From Bacillota bacterium (GTDB lineage Bacteria; Bacillota; Clostridia; Saccharofermentanales; DTU023), in NCBI GenBank assembly GCA_035654855.1, contig DASRVY010000012.1, forward strand, positions 1-61,661: a DNA stretch of 61,661 bases, written 5' to 3'. Shown piece after piece: positions 7,555-32,463 of this stretch. The notes under the pieces were generated by a model, which was given only the letters and a program-made list of their open reading frames with translations, was not told the origin of the DNA and made no database searches. How positions within the stretch are numbered: the first letter of the stretch is position 1; every line of letters starts with the position of its first letter. Made by a program: the position numbers and the translations under genes.

Positions 7555-8457
7555 ATGAAGAAATATGAATTTTTCTATGCCGCTAAGCAAGGTTTTGTCA
7601 ATCTTTTACGCCATCCCTTGCTCTTATTTTCTTCGGTTACTACCTTGACTATAATGCTTTTTTTATTGAGCACTTTTGCTGCTTTCTCCTTGAATGCCAG
7701 TCATCTGGCTGAGATATTGGGCAAGCAGCCCCCAATCGAAATTATGATGGAGCCAGGCATTGATGAGGAAATAGTTGACGATCTGGCAATCGACTTAAAT
7801 GAGAATCCTCTGGTTATCGAGATCAACGCTTATTCTGCAAAGGAAAATTTTGACAGCTTTAAGGAAAGCATCGGCAAAGAAGAAATTTTCAATGAAGAGA
7901 ACTATATTGGCAACTTTCCTGCCACTTTTAATGTGCGGCTTGATGATCCTGTCCGGGCGGAAGCCTTCAGAGAGGATATTTTGCAGCATAACGGTGTTTT
8001 CTCGGTGAGTCTTGAGCATGAATTAATGAGTTTTCTGGAGAAGGTCCGGACGACACTATACTCAGTGGGTATAACGGCATTTCTGATTTTGGCCCTGGTA
8101 TCATCGCTTGTGGTTGCTAATATGACCAGAGTAGCAGCTCTTTCCAGAGCTAACGAAATCAATATTATGAAATATGTCGGTGCGACCGACCGCTATGTTA
8201 GAATTCCCTTTATGATTGAAGGTGCAATAGCCGGGGTGTTAGGAGCATTGTTCGGCACTCTTATTTCAGGCTTTTTGTACAATTATATATATGGCGTCGT
8301 CGACAAATCGACTGCTGCCGGGTCACTGGCAACCCAGCTCAAGCTGCTGCCAACTTCACAGATAGTCGGTATAATGCTACTATTAAACATTATCGCAGGG
8401 GTGGTACTCTGTGTTATTGCCAGCTCCTTATCACTTAGGCGGCATGTGAAAGTTTGA
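7555..8457 (+). CDS. ftsX: Cell-division permease-like protein FtsX
   Basis: 300 aa. N-terminal TM, large extracytoplasmic loop, then three C-terminal TMs with ...MKYVGATDRYVRIPFMIEG..., typical of FtsX. Confidence 0.85.
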   Translation: MKKYEFFYAAKQGFVNLLRHPLLLFSSVTTLTIMLFLLSTFAAFSLNASHLAEILGKQPPIEIMMEPGIDEEIVDDLAIDLNENPLVIEINAYSAKENFDSFKESIGKEEIFNEENYIGNFPATFNVRLDDPVRAEAFREDILQHNGVFSVSLEHELMSFLEKVRTTLYSVGITAFLILALVSSLVVANMTRVAALSRANEINIMKYVGATDRYVRIPFMIEGAIAGVLGALFGTLISGFLYNYIYGVVDKSTAAGSLATQLKLLPTSQIVGIMLLLNIIAGVVLCVIASSLSLRRHVKV

Positions 8458-9785: not shown

Positions 9786-11276
9786 ATGAATCAAGAAACA
9801 GGGCCTAATCCTACACAAGAGGATCCGGGACGGCCTCAGCAACAGTATCCCAATAATTATTATCCCCCGTACTATTACGGACCGCCGCCTAAACCGCCGG
9901 TTACGGAATCAAAGTGTTTCTGGAAAATTGTTCTGGCGGTTTTCCTTACTGCCGTGATATCTATTGCCCTCACTTTAGGCGGGTCTTATGTGTTTTTCAG
10001 CACTCGTCAAGCCCTTGCCGATATCAACCGGACTGAACAGAGCGTGGGCATTGGACTGGAAACAAAAGAAGCCGAGCCGACAACGACCTCTGCAGTTGAG
10101 ACAGATGCGACAGCCGAGACTCAGGCGCCTTCATCAAATTCAATTGACACTGCTTCGGGACTTATTTTTGAGCGCACGCCTGAGAATACCGAGGCGCTGG
10201 ATAAACTGTCCGAGATTTGGAATTTGTTGAAAGACAATTTTTACCTTGAGTACTCTGACGCCGAGTTGATCAATATGATGAGCGAAGGTCTGGTCATGAA
10301 TATGGGCAGCCGCTATACCTTTTATCTGTCGCCTGAAGAGCGTGAGTTGGACAAGGAAGGCATGTCCGGCGAGTATAGCGGCATTGGCGCCGTTGTGCAG
10401 ATGAACGAGGACGAAACATATGTCATTACCCGCATTATCGATGACTCACCGGCTATGGAGGCGGGTTTGCAGGCAGGTGATGTTTTTGTCGCAGTAGATG
10501 ACAGGCAGGCCAGAGATTTTAAGAGTGTGGATTCTTTAGCTAGCGCTGTACGGGGGGAAGAAGGCACCAAGATCAAGATTGAGATTTACCGTCCTGCATC
10601 AGATGAGAATATAGTTTTGGAAGTCGAGAGACGACAGATAACTACTGCGAACGTGTCGTACAAAATGCTGGATGACAATGTCGGTTATATTTGTGTGACT
10701 GAGTTTACAGGCCATGTGGCTGAGAATTTTAAGAGTGCGATAATTGATTTGCTGGACCGTGGAATGACCGGGCTGGTAATTGACCTCAGAGATAATGGCG
10801 GCGGCTTGGCGGATGAATGTATCCAGATGTTGGATTTGCTGCTCGATGCTGAAACAGTTTCGGTGATTCGGGGCAGAATCGGAGGCGAGCCGATACAGGA
10901 GGACTGGACGACTGAAGATGGTGTCTTGGTGCCCCACGACATGCCTGTTTCTCTAATTCTCAACCAGTACTCTGCCAGTGCCAGTGAGTTGTTCGCGGGC
11001 GCGCTGCAGGACCTGTCCAGAGTTGAGATTGTCGGGGTGCAGTCGTTTGGTAAGGGCGTTGGCACGCGCACATGGGAACTGTCTGACGGTTCAGCTCTCC
11101 AGATTACGAATTTTGAGTACTTTTTGCCGGAGGGTGAGAATATTGAAGATAAAGGTATTACGCCGGATTATGAGGTTGAGCTGCCGGAGGATATTGCCAC
11201 CAAGCAGATTAGTCAACTGACCCGCGAAGAAGATACACAGCTTGCGAAGGCGATTGACTTGGTAAAACTTGATTAA
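9786..11276 (+). CDS. S41-family C-terminal processing peptidase (PDZ-containing)
   Basis: PDZ region (...ITRIIDDSPAMEAGLQAGDVFVAVDD...) and S41 core (...LVIDLRDNGGG..., ...NQYSASASELFAGAL..., ...FGKGVG...). ATG at 9786 follows AGGAGA; the track starts at the TTG at 9780. Confidence 0.85.
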   Translation: MNQETGPNPTQEDPGRPQQQYPNNYYPPYYYGPPPKPPVTESKCFWKIVLAVFLTAVISIALTLGGSYVFFSTRQALADINRTEQSVGIGLETKEAEPTTTSAVETDATAETQAPSSNSIDTASGLIFERTPENTEALDKLSEIWNLLKDNFYLEYSDAELINMMSEGLVMNMGSRYTFYLSPEERELDKEGMSGEYSGIGAVVQMNEDETYVITRIIDDSPAMEAGLQAGDVFVAVDDRQARDFKSVDSLASAVRGEEGTKIKIEIYRPASDENIVLEVERRQITTANVSYKMLDDNVGYICVTEFTGHVAENFKSAIIDLLDRGMTGLVIDLRDNGGGLADECIQMLDLLLDAETVSVIRGRIGGEPIQEDWTTEDGVLVPHDMPVSLILNQYSASASELFAGALQDLSRVEIVGVQSFGKGVGTRTWELSDGSALQITNFEYFLPEGENIEDKGITPDYEVELPEDIATKQISQLTREEDTQLAKAIDLVKLD

Positions 11277-11341: not shown

Positions 11342-11417
11342 GGGCGATTAGCTCAGTTGGGAGAGCGCTGCGTTCGCAACGCAGAGGTCGTGAGTTCGAA
11401 TCTCATATCGTCCACCA
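11342..11417 (+). tRNA. tRNA-Ala (anticodon CGC), CCA encoded
   Basis: GGGCGAT acceptor with the G3:U70 Ala identity pair. Anticodon stem CTGCG/CGCAG with loop TTCGCAA, T-loop GGTCGTGAGTTCGAATCTCAT, then ACCA. Confidence 0.9.
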
Positions 11418-11424
11418 GCAAAAA

Positions 11425-11460
11425 CCCCTGGCGCTAAATAGCGACAGGGGTTTTGTATTT
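11425..11460 (+). terminator. Intrinsic terminator after tRNA-Ala
   Basis: Stem CCCCTGGCGC...GCGACAGGGG followed by TTTTGTATTT. Confidence 0.8.
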
Positions 11461-11692: not shown

Positions 11693-11713
11693 TACTACCC
11701 GGGGAGGGTAGTA
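11693..11713. promoter_or_regulatory. 8-5-8 perfect inverted repeat TACTACCC-GGGGA-GGGTAGTA upstream of the signalling locus
   Basis: Lies about 70 bp upstream of the ATG at 11783 and just upstream of a TATAAT at about 11728-11733, so it overlaps the expected -35 position. A related box is at 16766-16786. Confidence 0.4.
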
Positions 11714-11782
11714 CAGAAGAGACTGAAATATAATAAAATTACTTTATGATGTATTATCCGTTTAGTCAATTTTGAGGTTTGC

Positions 11783-12166
11783 ATGAAAAAAATTGGTTTT
11801 ATTACAACAAATAAAGTGCTGGCTCAAAGCCTCGCCGAATCTCTCAAGAACTATCCTGACTTGAAATTAGAGCCTTTCTTATTGCTGAATCCTCAACAGG
11901 CAATCCTCGATGCAGATCTGGCAAAACTGGATATCGCTCTTCTGGATATTACAGATGCGAGCGCGATGGAAAATGAAAAACACTTAATGTTTTGCCAAAA
12001 GCTGCGGCAGGCGATTCCTGATTGTCACTTGTTACTCCTGGTGTCTCAGGATAATATTAGGGGGAGAAAAGCGGCGATCGATGCCATAAAAAGCAAAATA
12101 GCCGACGATTTCATTTTTTACGACACGTCGCTAAATTACCTTTTTGCTAAACTGGCAGCTATTTGA
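11783..12166 (+). CDS. Stand-alone receiver-like (pseudo-receiver) protein, paralog 1
   Basis: 127 aa with an alternating beta/alpha pattern like CheY. It lacks the N-terminal acidic pair (KIGFITTN) and the conserved Lys (..FIFYDTS..). It is a paralog of 17338..17727 and shares the C-terminal motif DDFIFYDTSLNYLFAKL. Confidence 0.6.
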   Translation: MKKIGFITTNKVLAQSLAESLKNYPDLKLEPFLLLNPQQAILDADLAKLDIALLDITDASAMENEKHLMFCQKLRQAIPDCHLLLLVSQDNIRGRKAAIDAIKSKIADDFIFYDTSLNYLFAKLAAI

Positions 12167-12185
12167 CTCAGAAAAAGCTACATAA

Positions 12186-14657
12186 ATGAGGAGGAATATT
12201 TGCTTGAGAGAGAGAGCAAATAAATTTGTGCACCTTATAGCAGTGTGTGCAATAATTGCGATGCTGTTCTTTACTATGGCTTCTTGCAGTCATAGCAGTT
12301 TCCCGGATAAGATTATCTGCACTCGAGATGAGACCTCCTCCTATTCAGACGTCATCGCCGATATACTTCCGGATTATACTTTGATTAGAGATAAAGCTGA
12401 TGACGCTATGTTCTCGTATTTGAACAAAGGATATGAGACTGACACCTTCGATGTGCTGGCAGTCGGCGCGCTGGCAAACGGTGTCGCCAGCCAATGGTAT
12501 CCGCAGTATCTGGCTACCCCTGTCATAGCAATCGATCGCGAGCTTACAGATGTGAAAATTGACAGCTGGATGGATCTGTTGGCTGTTAAGGAAAATGTCG
12601 CTCTTTCTGAAGAGCAGCCGTATCAACAACTGATAATATCAGCTATTTCTTATGGCCTGGAAGGCGAAAATTTCAGTCTTGACAGCGCTATGGATTTGCT
12701 AAGATCACTCAGACAAAGTAGGCGTTTAACTTTAAACACGGTAACTGAGCCCATTGTCATCTGCTTTGACTATCAGGCGGCTGCGCTGATAAAAAGTGGA
12801 CGCATGCTGGAAATCGTTGTACCCCGGGAGGGCAGTTTAACTTTTGAGAAGGGTATTCTCTCAAACAAGGAGCTCAATTTTAGCGGAAATGAAAAAACAT
12901 CGCTGCTGGCTGCCGGTTTCCGTCTGCCGGACGGAAGCTGTGATCCCAATTTTTACCCCGGTGCAGATTATGAAAATACTTTTGAACTGGAAGATTACAG
13001 CCATCTTAGCAGTGTGAGTCAGGATATTGTGAGGGCTTTTCGACGCAGCGTTTTGTGGACACGCTTATACAGCTCTGCAGATAATCGTGAGCATCAATTG
13101 TTCCCCTTAATCTATATAGTGATTGTAGTTGTATGGCTGACATACATTGTAAGTCGCACCTTGCAAAATCAGGTGAAGACTATATTGCGCTTAATAGGGA
13201 TCGTTTTATTGGGCTGGATTATTGTCCGGCTGATAAAGTATCAACTGCCCTCGAGTTTATTAAATCGCTATCTCTGGTATGGTTTCTACATCTTCCAGCT
13301 AACCTTGCCCGTGTTACTGCTCTGGCTAGTCTGGCGGAGCGACAAGATGGCAGACCAGCCGATGTTTGTTAAGGGTCTGCAGGCCTTAGCACTCTTCAAC
13401 GGGATCCTAATCGTCTTCGTATTTACAAACGATCTGCATAATCTGGTTTTTCAACTAGACCTGAAAAACTCTGCCAACGCAGCTGATTATTCTTATGGCC
13501 CCGTTTTTTATCTAATCACAATAGTTTGGATTACAGAGCTGGCTATGGCGCTCATCACGCTTCTGGTCAAGAGCAATCAGTTACCGCGCAAGACTGCTTT
13601 AATTTTTCCGTTGATTTTTTGTCTGGTTTTGCTTGTCTATGCCATAGGTTATATTGCGCGTATTCCAATTTTTTGGTTCAGTGACTACACAATTGTCGTC
13701 GGCCTTTTAAGCCTCTTTTTTCTTGAAGCCAGCCTGCAAACGGGACTGGTTCAGGGTAATAGCAAATATTCCGATCTTTTTGTACACTCGCCTCTGAATA
13801 TGCAAATCATCAATAGAGAGGGGCAGCCGGTTCTGGCGTCCGCCAATGCTCCGAAATTCGATCTTGAATTGCAGCAGGCGGCTTTGGCGGCTTATCCCTC
13901 GGCAATACAAACAAAAGAGGACACGTTGTTGTTTTCCACCGAGATCAGAGGAGGCTATGCCCAGTGGCAGGAAGATATCAGCAGCTTAAATTATTTGCAT
14001 CGACAAATAGAAGAATCAGTGAAAAAACTTAAGCTGACTAACACTGTTTTAGAGAGAGAGGAAAAAATCCGCAGGGAACTGGACGAAGAGGATGTTCAGG
14101 TTCAACTTATGACTCAGCTCGAAGAACTCATAGCGGCGGATCTCTGGCGGCTGTCTTCGATGATAGAAGGGCTGGACAGTACAAGAGAAGAACCGGGAGA
14201 AAATGGCCGCATCGCCCTTCTGCTTTGTTATATTAAACGGCGCAGCAATCTTTTTTTCAGGAGGCAGGAATCAGAAGCTTTAGCAGCGGATGAACTGATA
14301 GTCTATATCGATGAATTGGCTGAAATTGCAAAGTACGCCGGTGTAAAAATTCTGGTCAACAGTGAGCTTAAAGATACTGTCCCTGTACGGCAGGCCTGTC
14401 TATTCTACGAATTATCCTACAAAGTAATTGACTGGGCAGCAAAAAATAAAAATCCACATATCATATTGCAGCTGCTCAGGGTAAAAGAACAGATCACGCT
14501 GCGACTCTTGTCATCGGAGGATCTTGGTTCATATGAACCGGAAGAAGAATTGAGATGTGCAATCGCTTTGGCTGATGGGGCTTACACTAATAAGGATCTG
14601 GATGGCGCGGTCGGCATTAGCCTCACTTTTTGGCAGAGAGGTAATCAGAATGTCTGA
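12186..14657 (+). CDS. Lipoprotein-anchored sensor-like membrane protein: extracytoplasmic domain, 7 TM segments and a degenerate HisKA_3/HATPase-like C-terminus
   Basis: Lipobox-like FTMASC after a hydrophobic N-terminus, about 290 aa of soluble region, then seven hydrophobic segments counted by eye. The C-terminal coiled coil aligns with the neighbouring kinase H-box (EREEKIRRELDEEDVQVQL vs EREMQKAKMRAHDVLGQRL) but has no His there, and I see no N/G boxes. The in-frame TTG at 12204 after AGGAGG is an alternative start. Confidence 0.6.
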   Translation: MRRNICLRERANKFVHLIAVCAIIAMLFFTMASCSHSSFPDKIICTRDETSSYSDVIADILPDYTLIRDKADDAMFSYLNKGYETDTFDVLAVGALANGVASQWYPQYLATPVIAIDRELTDVKIDSWMDLLAVKENVALSEEQPYQQLIISAISYGLEGENFSLDSAMDLLRSLRQSRRLTLNTVTEPIVICFDYQAAALIKSGRMLEIVVPREGSLTFEKGILSNKELNFSGNEKTSLLAAGFRLPDGSCDPNFYPGADYENTFELEDYSHLSSVSQDIVRAFRRSVLWTRLYSSADNREHQLFPLIYIVIVVVWLTYIVSRTLQNQVKTILRLIGIVLLGWIIVRLIKYQLPSSLLNRYLWYGFYIFQLTLPVLLLWLVWRSDKMADQPMFVKGLQALALFNGILIVFVFTNDLHNLVFQLDLKNSANAADYSYGPVFYLITIVWITELAMALITLLVKSNQLPRKTALIFPLIFCLVLLVYAIGYIARIPIFWFSDYTIVVGLLSLFFLEASLQTGLVQGNSKYSDLFVHSPLNMQIINREGQPVLASANAPKFDLELQQAALAAYPSAIQTKEDTLLFSTEIRGGYAQWQEDISSLNYLHRQIEESVKKLKLTNTVLEREEKIRRELDEEDVQVQLMTQLEELIAADLWRLSSMIEGLDSTREEPGENGRIALLLCYIKRRSNLFFRRQESEALAADELIVYIDELAEIAKYAGVKILVNSELKDTVPVRQACLFYELSYKVIDWAAKNKNPHIILQLLRVKEQITLRLLSSEDLGSYEPEEELRCAIALADGAYTNKDLDGAVGISLTFWQRGNQNV

Positions 14658-16086
14658 TTTTTATAGCTGGCCAAACTCAGTACGACAGATACTCACCGGG
14701 GTAATCGCGCTGGGTGTACTAAGTCAGACAATGCTAATAATTCTCAGTTATCGCAGATATCCACGCAACTTTAAGCGTGCGCTTGAAAGTCTTTTGGAAG
14801 TTCTCATGCTCTTAGGCTTAATTGTTTATTCCCTCATGCATGGGCAGGCAATTCATTCTTACTTCACCGGAATAATCGTTCCTCCGGGATATGAGGTGTT
14901 ACGCACAACAGCTTTTGCACTTATTGCGCTGACAGCGGGCGGGGTCGCAGTCTCGACAAAAAAACTCTGCCCATTTCTGTTGACGCTGCCTTTTCTTTTG
15001 CTGCTCCCCCCTATGGAGGGAATACTGGCAGACAGCTTCGCTTACCTCTTTTTCGTGTCAATTGTAATACTTCCGGTCCGCAGTGTTTATCTTTCTGTCT
15101 TGAGGTCAAGAGAGATTAGCAGCAGTATTTCTGCATTATCGATTAAGAATACAGTTGATTCTCTGCATACCGGGGTTCTATTTAGTGAGTTAGACGGTTT
15201 TATTTTGTTAATAAATAAGCAGATGCAACTGCTTATGAAAACTATTTTTGGACAGCTGTATCGCGATGGCAGACAGTTTTATGATCTTTTAGTGTCGGGT
15301 GAAGTCAAATTAGGATGTAAGAGAACCGAATTTGAAGGACAGATTGTCTTCCTTCTACCTGACAAGACAGCTTGGATGTTTACCAGCAGCAAAATTGAAA
15401 TCAAAGGCAAAAGTTACACCCAACTGGCAGCGACTGACATTACGCAGCAATGGATCATGACGGAAAAACTGCAAAGGCAGGAGAAAGAACTTACAATTAA
15501 GTCGAAGATGCTGAGAGAGTCGATCTCTAATCTGCAGATTCTTAGTCGGGAAAGAGAGATGCAAAAAGCAAAAATGCGCGCGCACGATGTTTTAGGTCAA
15601 AGGCTGTCTTTACTGCTGCGAAGTATTCGCAGTGATGAGAGGCTGGACCATGATTTGCTGCGCTCTCTGTCTCAAGGGATCCTTGAAGAGTTAAAAGAGG
15701 AAAAAACCGCACCGACTCCCAAAGATGAACTCGACGATTTGCAGCAGACTTTTAATGCGATCGGGATAAAAATTTCATTTAAGGGGGAGCTGCCTTCAGA
15801 TCCCAAAAAAGGCAGCATTATTACTGATATCATAAAAGAGAGTGTCACGAATGCAGTGCGACACGGTTTTGCCACGGAGATATCAATTGAAATAGGTGAT
15901 GTCGAAAATCGCCATTATTTGCTAATCTCAAATAACGGGGAGCTCCCTTCCCTGCCAATAATTGAGGGAGGAGGAATTGCAGCTATGAGAAAAATGGTGG
16001 AGCCCTATGGCGGGAATGTCGATGTAAGCGTAGATCCGCATTTTGCTCTGACTGTCTATGTCCCGGAGGTGAAGTATGAACTATAA
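14650..16086 (+). CDS. Multi-pass sensor histidine kinase, HisKA_3 (NarX/DesK-like) type
   Basis: H-box MRAHDVLGQRLS, N-box ESVTNAVRHGFA, G-boxes ISNNGELP and GGGIAAMRKMVEPYGG. The ATG at 14650 overlaps the upstream stop (ATGTCTGA) and follows GAGAGG. The track ORF begins earlier, at 14557. Confidence 0.85.
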   Translation: MSDFYSWPNSVRQILTGVIALGVLSQTMLIILSYRRYPRNFKRALESLLEVLMLLGLIVYSLMHGQAIHSYFTGIIVPPGYEVLRTTAFALIALTAGGVAVSTKKLCPFLLTLPFLLLLPPMEGILADSFAYLFFVSIVILPVRSVYLSVLRSREISSSISALSIKNTVDSLHTGVLFSELDGFILLINKQMQLLMKTIFGQLYRDGRQFYDLLVSGEVKLGCKRTEFEGQIVFLLPDKTAWMFTSSKIEIKGKSYTQLAATDITQQWIMTEKLQRQEKELTIKSKMLRESISNLQILSREREMQKAKMRAHDVLGQRLSLLLRSIRSDERLDHDLLRSLSQGILEELKEEKTAPTPKDELDDLQQTFNAIGIKISFKGELPSDPKKGSIITDIIKESVTNAVRHGFATEISIEIGDVENRHYLLISNNGELPSLPIIEGGGIAAMRKMVEPYGGNVDVSVDPHFALTVYVPEVKYEL

Positions 16087-16696
16087 GGTCCTTATAGTTG
16101 ATGATCATGAATCCATGTGTGATTCTCTAAAATTTGCTCTTGAAGAAGCCGGAGGTTTTGAAGTCGTGGGCAGCATCCCCACTGCAGCTTATGCTGATGT
16201 TTACTCTGAGCGGCTGCGTCCTGACCTGGTCTTGATGGACGTCTGTACTGAAGGAGGTGCTTCCGGACTTGATGCTGTCATAGTTTTAAGAGACAAATAC
16301 CCCGATATGAAAATTATTGTCATGTCAGGCTTTGATGAAATAACCTATGCACCCAGAGCTAAAGAAGCCGGAGCTGATGCTTTTATTTTCAAAAGCAAAA
16401 GTCTCGATTACTTTATCGAGATAATCAACGGTGTGATGCAGGGGAAAAATTATTATCCGGAAAAGAAGATTATCCCCATGCCGGCAGGAGAGGCCCCACT
16501 GACTGAAAGGGAAATTGAAGTTTTGCGCCTGATGTGCAGGCATATGACAAGCAAGGAAATAGCGGAGGAGTTGTTTATCAGTGAGAATACTGTGAAATAT
16601 CATAAATCCAATATGCTGGCTAAAACAGGCTTCTCCAAGGCAGTGGAACTGGCATTCTATATGATATCGAACGGCTGGATTAACCCCTTATACTAA
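16076..16696 (+). CDS. NarL/LuxR-family response regulator (REC plus LuxR HTH)
   Basis: Canonical REC residues (LIVDDHE, LVLMDV, IVMSG, FIFKSK) and a GerE/LuxR HTH (LTEREIEVLRLMCRHMTSKEIAEELFISENTVKYHKSNM). It overlaps the kinase stop by 11 nt. Confidence 0.9.
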   Translation: MNYKVLIVDDHESMCDSLKFALEEAGGFEVVGSIPTAAYADVYSERLRPDLVLMDVCTEGGASGLDAVIVLRDKYPDMKIIVMSGFDEITYAPRAKEAGADAFIFKSKSLDYFIEIINGVMQGKNYYPEKKIIPMPAGEAPLTEREIEVLRLMCRHMTSKEIAEELFISENTVKYHKSNMLAKTGFSKAVELAFYMISNGWINPLY

Positions 16697-16765
16697 ACAC
16701 AACTATTTTATTTGAGAGCATCGGGGCAATCTGAGCTGTTCGCGCGCTTCGCTTTTTGGCGCAAA

Positions 16766-16786
16766 ACTATCCGCCGCGGGTAGGGT
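16766..16786. promoter_or_regulatory. Imperfect copy of the 11693 inverted-repeat box (ACTATCCG-N4-GGGTAGGGT)
   Basis: Aligned by eye to ACTACCCGGGGAGGGTAGTAC at the same 21-bp register, with 14 of 21 identities. It lies about 70 bp upstream of the lipoprotein gene at 16856. Confidence 0.3.
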
Positions 16787-16855
16787 GTAAGAAAATTGTT
16801 GATGCTAGTATGTAGCAGGTGGTCAAATTTATAATTTTTCGGAAGGAGTGATTAT

Positions 16856-17221
16856 ATGATAAAAAGAAAAATTTCAGTAGTTGCGATTTCTCTAATTTTG
16901 CTTTCAGCATTGCTGCTTTCTGCCTGTGGCGGCGGCGGCGGAGACAAATCCAGCGCAGACAAACTTAAAGGGACATGGGAAGGAACAAGAGACTCAATAG
17001 GTATCACCTTTAAATTCGACGGAAAAGGAGCCTGTGATACTGAGGACGAGTACGGCATCAAAGATACCGGAACTTATGAAATTATCGATGACAGCACCGT
17101 CAAAATTAAGATGTCCTATTGGGATCAAGAGATTGTCTATAACTACAAAATTGTCGGAGACAATATGGAGATGGATTCAGATGAACCACTTCGCCCTTCT
17201 TATGATCTGACAAAGAAATAA
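16856..17221 (+). CDS. Small lipoprotein, lipocalin-like (KGTWEG...) domain
   Basis: Signal peptide with lipobox LLLSAC, a GGGGG linker, then a beta-rich domain of about 85 aa. GGAAGGAG Shine-Dalgarno upstream. Confidence 0.7.
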   Translation: MIKRKISVVAISLILLSALLLSACGGGGGDKSSADKLKGTWEGTRDSIGITFKFDGKGACDTEDEYGIKDTGTYEIIDDSTVKIKMSYWDQEIVYNYKIVGDNMEMDSDEPLRPSYDLTKK

Positions 17222-17234
17222 TTGCTTGTCCTGA

Positions 17235-17274
17235 AGCGGGAAGGAGCAGGATAGCCCTTCCCGCTATGTTTTTT
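17235..17274 (+). terminator. Intrinsic terminator after the lipoprotein gene
   Basis: Stem AGCGGGAAGG...CCCTTCCCGCT followed by ATGTTTTTT. Confidence 0.75.
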
Positions 17275-17337
17275 CCGTAATTCCTTACAAAAACAGCAGA
17301 TTAACTTGAGCAAAATTGATAGGAAACTTGATATGCC

Positions 17338-17727
17338 ATGAACAAGAGTAAGGTTTTGTTGATTATGAGCCGAGAAATTGTTGCGGATTCTATTATTGCG
17401 CAGGCAAAGGCTAATGCGAGCTTTGAATTCTTAGCTGAACATGATTATTCTGCGGCAGTCCGGAAGGCAATCGAGTATAGACCGAAAATTGTGATCGTGG
17501 AAGTACCGGAGTCGGGCAGCTACAGAAATGCAGAGAACTGTCTTCGTATCTCCGACAGGATTAGGAAGAATCTGCCGCACGCAAAGCAGCTGCTTTTATG
17601 TTCAGAAACTGATACGGCATCCGGCCGTGTCGCAATACAAGCAAAATTAGAAAATAGAATTGACGACTTTCTTTTTTATGATACAAGTGTTAACTACTTG
17701 TTTTCCAAACTGGAATCGTTGATTTAG
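17338..17727 (+). CDS. Stand-alone receiver-like (pseudo-receiver) protein, paralog 2
   Basis: 129 aa with the same fold pattern as 11783..12166. The expected phospho-acceptor position reads IVIVEVPE (Glu, not Asp). C-terminal motif DDFLFYDTSVNYLFSKL. Confidence 0.6.
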   Translation: MNKSKVLLIMSREIVADSIIAQAKANASFEFLAEHDYSAAVRKAIEYRPKIVIVEVPESGSYRNAENCLRISDRIRKNLPHAKQLLLCSETDTASGRVAIQAKLENRIDDFLFYDTSVNYLFSKLESLI

Positions 17728-17765
17728 TAAATAGAAAAGACATGGAACATGGAGGAAGAGAATTT

Positions 17766-18530
17766 ATGAAAATAAACAGAAAAGTTTTTGTGATGCTGAT
17801 TGCCGTTATGATGGCGGCACTTCTGCTTGCGTCCTGCGGGAAAGAGGACGAGCCTTCCGGATCTGATGATCCTAATCTAGGGCTCTGGCAAGCCACAACA
17901 GTAGAGGTGTTTGATGAAGAATATCCTGCGGAGGAAATCTATCAGGACGGTTTCGAAATTGAGCTGCTGAAAGATGGCAAGTGCAAGTTCCGCGCTGAAG
18001 GGAAAGAAGATAAATACGATTGGAGCATAGAAGAAGACACACTCTCTATCAGCTCCGGCGGCAATGTTTTTATTACAGCTTTGATCAATGGCAACGAAAT
18101 GGTGATCGATGACTTTATGTCAATGGGAATTAAGATCACCTTGCAAAAAGAAGGCACTGCTTCTCAGAATGGTGCTTTAGATAATGATCCTGACCAGACA
18201 GAGACAGCAGAAAACGGCAGTGCTGAATTGACAGATCCGATTGTCGAAAATGATACCGATTCCGGTTTTACAAGTAGTGAGCTGAAGGAAATCTATCAGA
18301 CACTATCCCAAGATTATGATAACTCTGAGCTGCAAGGAATGTCTTATCAGGAGATCTGTGATACATATTTCGGCGGTGCGGAAGGAGTACTTGATTTCGA
18401 AGGCGAGACAATAACTATATACAAATGGATTGCCGGCGATAACCCCTCAGACTATGTGCAAGTGTCTTTTCAGGATTATGATGAGAGCGGTGAAAGAACG
18501 GCGGGCGGAATCGGCTCCGAATTCGAGTAA
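17766..18530 (+). CDS. Lipoprotein with N-terminal lipocalin-like domain and acidic C-terminal domain
   Basis: Lipobox LLLASC. LGLWQATTVE...DGKCKFRAEGKEDKYDWSIEEDTLSI resembles the first lipoprotein. ATG at 17766 (MKINRK) follows GGAGGA; the track starts at 17742. Confidence 0.7.
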   Translation: MKINRKVFVMLIAVMMAALLLASCGKEDEPSGSDDPNLGLWQATTVEVFDEEYPAEEIYQDGFEIELLKDGKCKFRAEGKEDKYDWSIEEDTLSISSGGNVFITALINGNEMVIDDFMSMGIKITLQKEGTASQNGALDNDPDQTETAENGSAELTDPIVENDTDSGFTSSELKEIYQTLSQDYDNSELQGMSYQEICDTYFGGAEGVLDFEGETITIYKWIAGDNPSDYVQVSFQDYDESGERTAGGIGSEFE

Positions 18531-18903
18531 ACAAATAATAGCAATAAAGTGGCCTGATCTTGTTCTATTACTGAATTGCCCTTTGATTGATTGCGCAGAA
18601 CTGTAAATCGTCCGGTGGATTCTTTCTTGTTGTATAATTTGAAATAAGAGATACCGACTGACAATAATTAATTTATAATTTGTGCGGTAAACACGATGAA
18701 GCAGGATCTGCGCATCACAAAGACTCAGCAAGCCACGGTGACAGTATGTTACCGTGGCTTGAAATACGCACACAATTATTTATTGGCTTTCCGGAAACAG
18801 CAGGATTTAATAGATGACTTGGCAGAGATCTTAAACTTGCTTATGTCGCAGGGAATAGAATAGCTGTTTTTGGGTGAGACATGTAAAGTTGTGAGGAAGC
18901 AAG

Positions 18904-20307
18904 ATGGCCAGAACAAAGTCAAACTATTTCTGCAGTGAATGTGGTTGGGAAAGCAGCGGCTACCTGGGAAAATGTCCCGGCTGCAATTCTTGGAACAGTT
19001 TTGTCGAGGTTGAGAAAGTTACCGGGAAAACTAAGAAGAAAGACCAACCATCAAGAGGTAATTGGGTTGCAGGGGACACCGGACTTCAGACAGGTGAGAG
19101 CGAACTGGTGTCCCTTACCGATGTCACAGCGGAAGCAGATTTACGTATTCCTACAAAGATCTCAGAGTTAGACAGAGTTCTGGGGGGCGGTTTGGTCAAG
19201 GGATCCATGGTGCTGCTGGGAGGCGAGCCCGGGATTGGAAAATCTACTTTGGTTTTGCAGATACTGGGGGCTTTGCCTGTCAATTCTTCCATTTATGTCA
19301 GTGGTGAGGAATCCCCTGCTCAAATCAGAATAAGAGCCGACCGCATCGGGGTTGAAAGAGAGAGAATAAACTGTCTGCCGGCGACAGATTTCGCCAGTAT
19401 TATCAACGCCGTGTCCCGGCATAAGCCGGAATATCTGATTGTGGATTCTATCCAAACTACTTATGTTGATGAGATTGCCGCGGCTCCGGGCAGTGTAACT
19501 CAAGTCAGAGAAGTTGCTGCCGGCTTGTTGCGTCTGGCCAAAGAAAAGTCAATTACTGTGATTCTGATTGGCCATGTAACCAAAGATGGCAATATTGCAG
19601 GTCCCAGAATTCTGGAGCATATGGTAGACACTGTACTGTATTTTGAGGGTGATAAAATTCATCGATACAGAATGCTGCGAGCAGTTAAAAACCGTTTCGG
19701 GGCCACGGACGAAGTTGGCTTTTTTGATATGAGCGACAAAGGTTTGGTCAGTCTTGACAAGGCTTCAGAATTATTGTTGTCAGGCAGACCGATGGGGGTG
19801 AGCGGATCGGTTGTAACGTCCACTATAGAGGGCTCGAGACCTTTGCTGCTGGAGATCCAGGCTCTTTTGGCAGCCAGTTCATATGCTTCCCCCTTGCGAA
19901 CGACCCAAGGCATTGACCGAATGCGCCTGTCTCTTTTGCTTGCAGTTCTGGATAAGAAAACGAGCCTTAATCTGAGCAGCATGGATGCTTATGTCAACGT
20001 TACCGGTGGACTGCGCATCACCGAAACTGCTACAGATTTAGCCGTTCTTTGCGCCGCCGTTTCAAGTATTAAGGATATAAAACCTCGATACGATGCGATT
20101 ATCCTCGGCGAAGTAGGATTGACGGGAGAGGTCAGAGGAATTTCACAAATCGAAAGAAGATTGACCGAAGCACAGCGTACCGGTTGGCGCACCTTCATAA
20201 TTCCTTCTGCTAACAAGATGCAGCTGGATAAAACTGATCTGGGTGACCGATTGGAGATATTTTTTGTGAGTGAGATCAATGAGGCATTTGATCTTCTGTT
20301 TCCGTAA
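18904..20307 (+). CDS. radA: DNA repair protein RadA/Sms
   Basis: N-terminal zinc ribbon CSECGWESSGYLGKCPGCNSW, Walker A GEPGIGKST, KNRFG motif and a Lon-like C-terminal domain. Confidence 0.95.
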   Translation: MARTKSNYFCSECGWESSGYLGKCPGCNSWNSFVEVEKVTGKTKKKDQPSRGNWVAGDTGLQTGESELVSLTDVTAEADLRIPTKISELDRVLGGGLVKGSMVLLGGEPGIGKSTLVLQILGALPVNSSIYVSGEESPAQIRIRADRIGVERERINCLPATDFASIINAVSRHKPEYLIVDSIQTTYVDEIAAAPGSVTQVREVAAGLLRLAKEKSITVILIGHVTKDGNIAGPRILEHMVDTVLYFEGDKIHRYRMLRAVKNRFGATDEVGFFDMSDKGLVSLDKASELLLSGRPMGVSGSVVTSTIEGSRPLLLEIQALLAASSYASPLRTTQGIDRMRLSLLLAVLDKKTSLNLSSMDAYVNVTGGLRITETATDLAVLCAAVSSIKDIKPRYDAIILGEVGLTGEVRGISQIERRLTEAQRTGWRTFIIPSANKMQLDKTDLGDRLEIFFVSEINEAFDLLFP

Positions 20308-32399: not shown

Positions 32400-32463
32400 G
32401 GATGAGAACTGCTTGCTAGGCTTTCTTTCGTCTGCTAGACTTTTCGGGTAGGAGGTAGTCAAA

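Follow-up and report, generated by a model that had tools for sequence, protein, structure and literature searches.

A pseudo-kinase and receiver-like proteins encoded with a HisKA_3/NarL-type pair in a conserved signalling cluster of anaerobic Clostridia

Gene content and layout of the locus

We analysed a signalling locus in a 61,661-nt stretch of clostridial DNA (contig DASRVY010000012.1), hereafter the window; coordinates refer to the whole window, and residue numbers for protein B follow its 823-aa form. The list of open reading frames (ORFs) of the window contains seven at this locus, designated A to G, all co-directional on the plus strand, as the initial annotation had described. They belong to a real, widely conserved and unstudied signalling cluster of anaerobic Clostridia, in which a histidine kinase (C) and a response regulator (D) are encoded together with a predicted pseudo-kinase (B) and predicted pseudo-receivers (A and F). 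The genes and the terminator that divides them are as follows.

11783-12166, plus strand: A, predicted stand-alone pseudo-receiver, A-type, 127 aa
12204-14657, plus strand: B, predicted pseudo-kinase, 817 aa from TTG 12204 (823 aa from the first ATG, 12186)
14650-16086, plus strand: C, HisKA_3-type histidine kinase with five transmembrane (TM) segments, 478 aa
16076-16696, plus strand: D, NarL/FixJ-type response regulator, 206 aa
16856-17221, plus strand: E, small DUF5640 (lipocalin-like) lipoprotein, 121 aa
17235-17275, plus strand: intrinsic terminator after E, perfect 10-bp stem followed by TGTTTTTT
17338-17727, plus strand: F, predicted stand-alone pseudo-receiver, F-type, 129 aa
17766-18530, plus strand: G, lipoprotein, 254 aa (262 aa if started at 17742)

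Two junctions that had been proposed as overlaps are read directly in the sequence: genes B and C share 8 nt (ATGTCTGA, 14650-14657) and genes C and D share 11 nt (16076-16086). The terminator previously placed between E and F is also present, its stem arms lying at 17235-17244 and 17256-17265 with the T-run next to them. The gene sizes first given hold for the ORFs, but two starts should probably be moved. The start of B is most likely TTG 12204, because a GAGGAGG Shine-Dalgarno sequence at 12188-12194 lies 9 nt 5' of this codon and the closest B homologs, which are 817 aa long, align from the residue that it encodes. G is started at 17766 in the public annotation, which gives 254 aa. The same annotation names A, C, F and G each as a "hypothetical protein".

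Kinase C and regulator D

D is a canonical NarL/FixJ response regulator, as initially annotated, with a receiver (REC) domain followed by a GerE/LuxR helix-turn-helix (HTH) domain. It matches Pfam Response_reg (1.5e-17) and GerE (2.3e-17), and D9, D10, D55 and the receiver Lys are all present.

The description of C as a multi-pass protein of the HisKA_3 kinase type is supported by its TM segments and H-box. Hydropathy predicts five hydrophobic TM segments separated by short loops, and the H-box KMRAHDVLGQR follows the HisKA_3-type pattern (R/K)xxHDxxxQ, with His312 kept in 67/67 aligned orthologs. The N-box (NAVRHG) is kept in the same 67 orthologs, and a G2-like box (GGGI..MR) is also conserved. 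The G1 box reads NNG rather than DNG (residues 424-426 within LLISNNGELP, nt 15919-15927). Most orthologs from the window's own close clade begin this box with Asn and those of a distant clade with Asp (DNG), and some orthologs have variants without any Asp (NNG, NVG, NIG, NTG). Pfam HATPase_c scores 21.9 bits on C against a cut-off of 26.4, and the best NCBIfam match is the UhpB C-terminus (4.6e-08, 32 bits against a cut-off of 408).

Protein B: a predicted solute-binding, seven-helix pseudo-kinase

B begins with a lipobox signal peptide (MASC; family consensus SGC). An AlphaFold2 (AF2) model with a mean predicted local distance difference test (pLDDT) score of 78.6 overall, rising to 85-94 in the C-terminal module, together with hydropathy, suggests the following domains.

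Residues 42-285: alpha/beta solute-binding domain
Residues 302-521: seven TM helices
Residues 527-597: PAS-like small alpha/beta domain
Residues 599-695: long helical hairpin like a dimerization and histidine phosphotransfer (DHp) domain, without the His
Residues 701-816: alpha/beta domain like a catalytic and ATP-binding (CA) domain, without N, G1 and G2 boxes

In Foldseek searches the N-terminal domain retrieves solute-binding proteins (5t1p at 5e-09, and also PotD, AfuA and AgtB), and residues 42-285 of the model have a type II bilobal solute-binding fold; the B family profile also matches 5t1p at 8.4e-05. A cationic amine is our guess at the ligand, because the predicted fold is PotD-like and many aromatic and acidic residues of B are invariant. 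The C-terminal part of the model retrieves WalK (5e-08), YF1, DesK, BceS and EL346, with E-values from 5e-08 to 2e-05, and by this search it has a DHp-CA fold. Among 20 homologs (38-67% identity), neither a His nor an N-box Asn, a DxGxG or a GxGxG is invariant or nearly so in residues 595-823, and the second helix of the DHp-like hairpin, LLLCYIKRRCNLFF, is nearly invariant and ranks with the best-conserved stretches of B. Because the DHp-CA fold is present but the conserved His and the ATP-binding boxes are absent, B is, judged from sequence and model, a histidine-kinase-fold protein without kinase chemistry, that is, a pseudo-kinase; the initial view of a catalytically dead sensor is thus upheld.

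The sequence of B alone gave no Pfam or NCBIfam match and a single-sequence PDB search was also empty. Over 247 homologs with lengths near 820 aa were found, many of them with precomputed SBP_bac_6 (PF13343) and HisKA_7TM (PF16927) matches, though PF16927 does not match B of the window at E<=0.1 despite its seven helices by model and hydropathy. Database entries for many of these homologs bear the name "histidine kinase N-terminal 7TM domain-containing protein"; others are entered as "ABC transporter substrate-binding protein".

Pseudo-receivers A and F

A and F are paralogous (BLASTP 9e-15). Neither has a Pfam match at E<=0.1 and a single-sequence PDB search with A found nothing; NCBIfam gave nothing usable for either, and weak NblR matches (24 bits against a cut-off of 300) were set aside as remote REC similarity only. 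The AF2 model of A (pLDDT 91.5) has a (beta-alpha)5 layout, and its 50 best PDB matches in Foldseek are receiver domains or related CheY-like folds with TM-scores up to 0.78. Two CpaE pilus-assembly entries are among these 50, and the top matches, at about 0.75, are all REC. Searched against PDB, the A-family profile finds receiver domains only, weakly (E about 0.01-0.02).

We compared the active-site positions in 89 pseudo-receivers (38 A-type and 51 F-type) from the related loci and the window, which contributed its two proteins. The position of the acidic pair in the A-type was set by alignment to the DD of YycF.

Acidic pair after beta1: A-type Thr-Thr, then conserved Asn-Lys; F-type Met plus a variable residue, then invariant Arg
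Phospho-acceptor of beta3: A-type Asp in 37/38 (Asp55 in A of the window); F-type Glu in 51/51
End of beta4: A-type Ser-Gln; F-type Pro/Ser-Glu
Lys position of beta5: Tyr in both types (Tyr113 in A of the window)

Neither A nor F therefore has the full set of acidic pair, Asp and Lys on which receiver phosphorylation depends, and on sequence and model both are pseudo-receivers. The initial statement that they lack phospho-acceptor chemistry is right for the acidic pair and the Lys, but A keeps Asp55. The two are also better described as distinct subfamilies, an A-type with Asp and an F-type with Glu and Arg, than as parts of a duplicated unit of pseudo-receiver and lipoprotein, which the initial annotation had proposed. 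Both types end in the motif DDFxFYDxSxxYLxxKL (DDFxFYDxSxxYLFxKL in A of the window). Their most conserved surfaces are helix alpha1 (xKVLAQSL) and beta5-alpha5. Receivers dock on DHp domains through alpha1 and beta5-alpha5 in the complexes of histidine kinases with response regulators DesK-DesR and HK853-RR468, both of which are among the structural matches.

At E<=1e-3 the pseudo-receiver family has 261 cluster representatives among 1.84 billion, almost all of them stand-alone proteins of about 125 aa. Rare fusions (P0340, P0343) join an F-type pseudo-receiver to a following canonical receiver domain, or a pseudo-receiver to a TM segment and an extracellular region. A divergent subgroup about 40% identical to A (P0206-P0211) is encoded in three further loci, L081-L083 (in L081 at 8001-8378), next to serine recombinases, a ParM-like ATPase, DUF3846 and DUF6103, a context like that of a mobile element.

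Conservation of the cassette across genomes

Scanning one genome per GTDB species, we found 107 species that encode a B relative and examined 80 loci (L001-L080). C follows B in 66/67 loci with enough downstream sequence, and D follows C in 62/63, the one miss being a split C ORF with D present. This B-C-D adjacency holds down to 30% protein identity. Of 73 loci, 32 have a pseudo-receiver gene upstream of B, and of 56 loci, 45 have one downstream of D. Among the 52 loci with both flanks, 45 have at least one pseudo-receiver in the cassette; A, when present, is always directly upstream of B. Because it recurs in the 80 examined loci, the arrangement is conserved far beyond chance, and the linkage of the pseudo-kinase and pseudo-receiver genes to the kinase/regulator pair, on which the initial annotation depended, holds across many genomes.

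Two clades differ in gene order. In the close clade, whose members are 39-67% identical to B, the order is A-B-C-D-(E)-F-(G). The distant clade (about 33% identity to B), which includes Flavonifractor, Lawsonibacter, Intestinimonas, Anaerotignum and Mediterraneibacter, is without an A-type protein and has the order SBP_bac_8 lipoprotein, membrane-anchored LuxR protein, Cys-rich 121-aa protein, B, C, D, F. The three extra genes open the cassette in L044-L076 (for example L050, 4444-7959); the LuxR/GerE-ending membrane protein is 530 aa long and the Cys-rich protein occupies the place of A.

Some loci show further variation. An Evtepia metagenome-assembled genome (MAG) carries tandem B-C-D cassettes in the order A-B-C-D-B-C-D-F-G (L038, 2514-14609). 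A frequent same-strand cluster downstream encodes an SPFH/Band_7 zinc-ribbon protein (about 459 aa), a DUF4428 protein and a small membrane protein; it lies 2-10 kb past D, with 19-26 loci per family (SPFH, 27 copies in 26 loci; L003, L007, L017, L021, L035, L038 and L045-L074), and is not in this window. Five cassette contigs (L011, L014, L015, L029 and L039) come from MAGs labelled Chloroflexi/Anaerolinea, Dysgonamonadaceae or Muribaculaceae, which reflects either horizontal transfer or binning contamination.

A conserved palindrome in the promoters of the cassette

Upstream of both A and E we found a 17-bp palindrome that was absent from the initial annotation.

11695-11711, palindromic: putative operator 1, CTACCCGGGGAGGGTAG, 72 nt upstream of the A ATG
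11734-11739, plus strand: inferred -10 of the A-B-C-D promoter, TAAAAT, 22 nt after operator 1, conserved column
16767-16783, palindromic: putative operator 2, CTATCCGCCGCGGGTAG, 73 nt upstream of the E ATG
16806-16811, plus strand: inferred -10 of the E promoter, TAGTAT, same alignment column as the -10 of the A promoter

The pattern CTAYCC-N5-GGRTAG with at most one mismatch is matched at exactly two places in the 61.6-kb window, each in a promoter of the locus itself; the count is circular, because the pattern was derived from those two sites. Across the related loci it has 128 matches in 1.12 Mb, against 4.55 expected from first-order Markov resamples (maximum 9). These matches fall in 60/80 loci and 106/128 are intergenic; they lie upstream of F-type genes (29), of the first cassette gene of the distant clade, c9 (21), of A (17) and of E (8), and a few precede genes for SPFH, lipoprotein and surface-layer-homology (SLH)-type surface proteins. 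The half-sites CTACCC/GGGTAG are identical in 124-128/128 matches at most positions, so that there is no compensatory variation, and the flanks are A-rich on the 5' side and GG on the 3' side.

An alignment of 14 promoters places a TAnnnT hexamer 22 nt past the palindrome and the start codon 72-78 nt from it, and many related loci have the motif at this distance upstream of A. The palindrome thus probably sits in the -35 region of an activator-dependent promoter, abutting the -10, and is probably not transcribed, because it lies upstream of a conserved -10-like hexamer at a fixed distance. The generic -35/-10 pair of a promoter scan (11723-11750) was replaced by the -10 that is conserved across loci. 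Since no DNA-binding protein other than D is shared by all cassettes, the palindrome is probably the operator of D, which would imply positive autoregulation with E as a local output. Its TACCC half-site is reminiscent of NarL heptamers.

In three loci the palindrome directly precedes the SPFH gene, and in L020 a palindrome at 10362-10378 precedes a gene for a 302-aa protein without a Pfam match. In the window a site with two mismatches (CTAGACTTTTCGGGTAG, 32435-32451), 13 nt before alaS (alanyl-tRNA synthetase), is at chance level and was not accepted as a regulon member.

Lipoproteins E and G

E matches Pfam DUF5640 (3.4e-09) and has the lipobox LSAC. G has a weak lipocalin/DUF5640-like N-terminal domain followed by an acidic linker; the initial suggestion that this domain is related to E is correct as far as a weak similarity goes, but beyond the signal peptide the relation is weak. 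Across the related loci E and G were found only in the close clade and are not universal parts of the cassette. E is a probable regulon member and local output of D: it reads as an output and not as a co-sensor because it carries the operon's own upstream palindrome. We therefore reject, as the primary reading, the initial view of the two lipoproteins as co-sensors.

Comparison with known systems

The gene set was not placed in any characterised system by searches of profile libraries, of the structure database and of the literature, in agreement with the initial statement that the arrangement could not be assigned to one. Literature searches on HisKA_7TM (PF16927), DUF5640, clostridial pseudo-receivers and pseudokinases with solute-binding domains likewise found no description of the cassette. 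Each of the ideas involved (accessory sensor, pseudo-kinase, receiver mimic, autoregulated NarL-type system) has a precedent.

The nearest two-component relatives are the HisKA_3/NarL systems DesK-DesR, NarX-NarL and LiaS-LiaR. Shared features are the H-box and N-box of C, its five TM segments as in DesK, the REC and GerE domains of D and an inverted repeat as the likely operator; the predicted cytoplasmic module of B also matches DesK structures. The cassette differs in its extra obligatory pseudo-kinase, its one or two pseudo-receivers and the NNG of C, and it has no LiaF-, NarK- or ABC (ATP-binding cassette)-type partner. In UhpABC, the sugar-phosphate system of E. coli, a multi-TM HisKA_3 kinase without an extracellular sensor also works with a separate ligand-binding membrane protein, and the predicted solute-binding domain of B falls into the structural cluster of the sugar-phosphate binders AfuA and VcA0625. 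However, UhpC is a homolog of major facilitator superfamily (MFS) transporters and UhpABC has no pseudo-receivers, whereas B combines a lipoprotein anchor, a solute-binding domain, seven TM helices and a pseudo-kinase. The cassette encodes no MFS protein; its likeness to UhpABC is one of function alone.

An extracellular binding protein or lipoprotein that modulates a membrane kinase is also found in TorT-TorS, LuxP-LuxQ, SaePQ-SaeRS and YycHI-WalK. There the binding protein is free or lipid-anchored, whereas here it is fused to a seven-TM pseudo-kinase, and E and G look like outputs and not like accessories of this kind.

Other parallels concern proteins that have lost signalling chemistry. 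In DivL-DivK-CckA of Caulobacter, a His-less kinase-fold adaptor and a single-domain receiver reportedly control a real kinase. DivL, however, still has a Tyr and an ATP-binding domain and is a cytoplasmic or polar protein, DivK is truly phosphorylatable, the genes are not in one operon, and phylum and output differ from those of the cassette. In Osp of Rhodobacter sphaeroides, a receiver-like protein that stands alone, the Asp of beta3 is retained but the acidic pair and the Lys of beta5 are missing. Osp binds to the transmitter of CckA, where it inhibits kinase activity and spares phosphatase activity, and the cognate regulator CtrA activates the osp gene (PMC9430884). Compared by description and not by sequence, this residue pattern is exactly that of the A-type. 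The osp gene carries a site of its cognate regulator, and F-type genes carry the palindrome in 29 loci, though not in the window. Osp is nonetheless an unlinked, monocistronic alphaproteobacterial gene, and the cassette has two subtypes, one of them with an invariant Glu. In FasBCA of group A Streptococcus, two adjacent kinase-like genes and a regulator are proposed to form a system with a kinase heterodimer and one phospho-His donor (PMC12675982). FasB supplies the ATPase domain, which B does not have; FasA is of the LytTR/ComE type, and neither a solute-binding domain nor pseudo-receivers are present.

Pseudo-kinases and receiver mimics such as DivL, Osp, RetS and FasB are otherwise known as isolated curiosities. 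Here they appear joined to a real kinase/regulator pair in one compact, translationally coupled and apparently autoregulated operon. Clostridia from gut and digester conserve this operon in no fewer than 107 species, with cultured members of Lawsonibacter, Flavonifractor, Intestinimonas, Anaerotignum and Mediterraneibacter among them, and it offers a tractable natural system for studying how dead signalling domains control live ones. Two unannotated families are defined by this work, namely the pseudo-receivers (about 260 cluster representatives) and the solute-binding, seven-TM pseudo-kinase proteins of about 820 aa, which NCBI labels "hypothetical" or, as a misnomer, "ABC transporter substrate-binding protein". 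A concrete 17-bp putative operator and a local regulon make the model set out below directly testable.

A proposed mechanism and its alternatives

What was observed is the gene content, the folds, the missing catalytic residues, the synteny, and where the motif lies and how far it is conserved; all protein-protein and protein-DNA interactions, the direction of regulation and the ligand are our inference. We favour, with no more than moderate confidence, an autoregulated multi-component HisKA_3/NarL system in which the pseudo-kinase is a co-sensor and the pseudo-receivers are decoys. By family membership C, which has no extracellular domain, would autophosphorylate on His312 and pass the phosphate to Asp55 of D. 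A phosphorylated D dimer would bind the palindrome, the position and conservation of which suggest a class-II-activator-like site, and would activate the A-B-C-D operon and E and, in relatives, F-type genes and genes for surface or envelope proteins. The main signal input would be B, with a lipid-anchored, extracellular PotD/AfuA-like solute-binding domain on a seven-TM body. Having lost the His and the ATP-binding motifs, B presumably cannot phosphorylate and so would have to act by contact with C. We picture a fixed B:C membrane complex, similar to UhpC-UhpB, because the two proteins are translationally coupled and co-inherited, and assign to B the role of a ligand-binding co-sensor controlling C by contact, because no other component has an extracellular domain and B is coupled to C. 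A and F are most likely receiver mimics, decoys that would occupy the transmitter of C or B without accepting phosphate, since their most conserved surfaces are those that receivers use on DHp domains; such docking could tune the kinase/phosphatase balance and provide feedback, as Osp does on CckA.

Several observations weigh against this model. By analogy with other GHKL ATPases, the Asn in the G1 box could weaken ATP binding by C, and its kinase activity is not assured. Aligned by hhalign, the C-terminal module of B and the module of C are colinear, but the match is weak (E 0.012); we therefore make no sequence-based claim that B and C are paralogs, and the kinase fold of B rests on the structure search. 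Only the recurrence of the palindrome in other genomes counts as independent evidence for it. No operator precedes F in the window, even with up to three mismatches allowed, or in the three closest relatives, so that a feedback arm through F is unsupported for this genome. One locus (L020, 7986-11349) is the only one in which B is not followed by C-D, and the pseudo-receiver subgroup of L081-L083 is unlinked to the cassette, with no B-C-D within 8 kb.

The pseudo-receivers might instead act on B. A and/or F would then form with B a degenerate kinase/receiver pair, in which docking on the hairpin of B would depend on the ligand and be read allosterically by C, much as phosphorylated DivK on DivL is said to control CckA. 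We regard this as unlikely, but it has more in its favour than the other alternatives below: A always lies directly upstream of B when present, B is predicted to keep a DesK-like DHp-CA fold, the high conservation of the LLLCYIKRRCNLFF helix without a catalytic role suggests a preserved protein interface, and DivL offers a precedent (PMC4211667, PMC5361649). The same helix could, however, equally be the B:C interface, and the distant clade has B without an A-type protein, its F-type gene following D and not B.

A more elaborate and rather improbable version places such a pair in parallel to C-D, with the A-type, which has the Asp but no metal site, mimicking the unphosphorylated and the F-type, through its Glu and Arg, the phosphorylated regulator, so that the two would be state-specific decoys of the B:C complex. 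If this were true, A and F would compete with D or phosphorylated D for different transmitter states, and kinase and phosphatase outputs would be tuned separately; the relatives in mobile-element-like contexts (L081-L083) could use the same trick against host signalling.

We attach a low probability to the reading in which C is inactive as a kinase because of its NNG, D is phosphorylated otherwise or works independently of phosphorylation, and B, C, A and F form an allosteric or phosphatase-type complex. The Asn of the window and of most close-clade orthologs, the absence of any Asp from some of them and the HATPase_c score under its cut-off would fit it. Yet His312, NAVRHG and GGGI..MR are conserved, D keeps every phospho-acceptor residue, the distant clade has a canonical DNG within the same architecture, and the conservation of the Asn, which does not vary at random, points to function.

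Equally improbable in our judgement is that the palindrome, rather than being the operator of D, is an RNA hairpin acting in attenuation or processing, or is bound by some other factor. If transcribed, it would form a perfect 7-bp stem with a 3-nt loop, and the membrane-anchored LuxR-type protein encoded in the distant-clade cassette (c7) could bind it. Against a hairpin stand the near-identity of the half-sites, which vary without compensation, and the fixed distance to a downstream -10; against another factor stands the persistence of the palindrome in the clade without c7, where D is the sole HTH protein, and the half-site resembles NarL heptamers. That C-D is an ordinary two-component system and A, B, E, F and G are unrelated neighbours is scarcely credible: C-D alone would suffice for a minimal system, but B-C-D adjacency (66/67 and 62/63, at identities down to 30%) leads us to reject chance adjacency, start and stop codons overlap, and the A operon and E share an operator.

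Flanking regions

The locus is bounded upstream by a tRNA-Ala(CGC) gene at 11342-11417, which has its own 16-bp hairpin terminator (tRNA and terminator together span 11342-11454); about 240 bp of non-coding DNA separate this terminator from operator 1. Downstream, a non-coding gap of about 370 bp (18531-18903) lies between G and the next ORF and contains a 15-bp inverted repeat (18729-18761) with no T-run after it. The ORF that follows (18904-20307) looks by eye like radA, and a further ORF lies from 20331 on.

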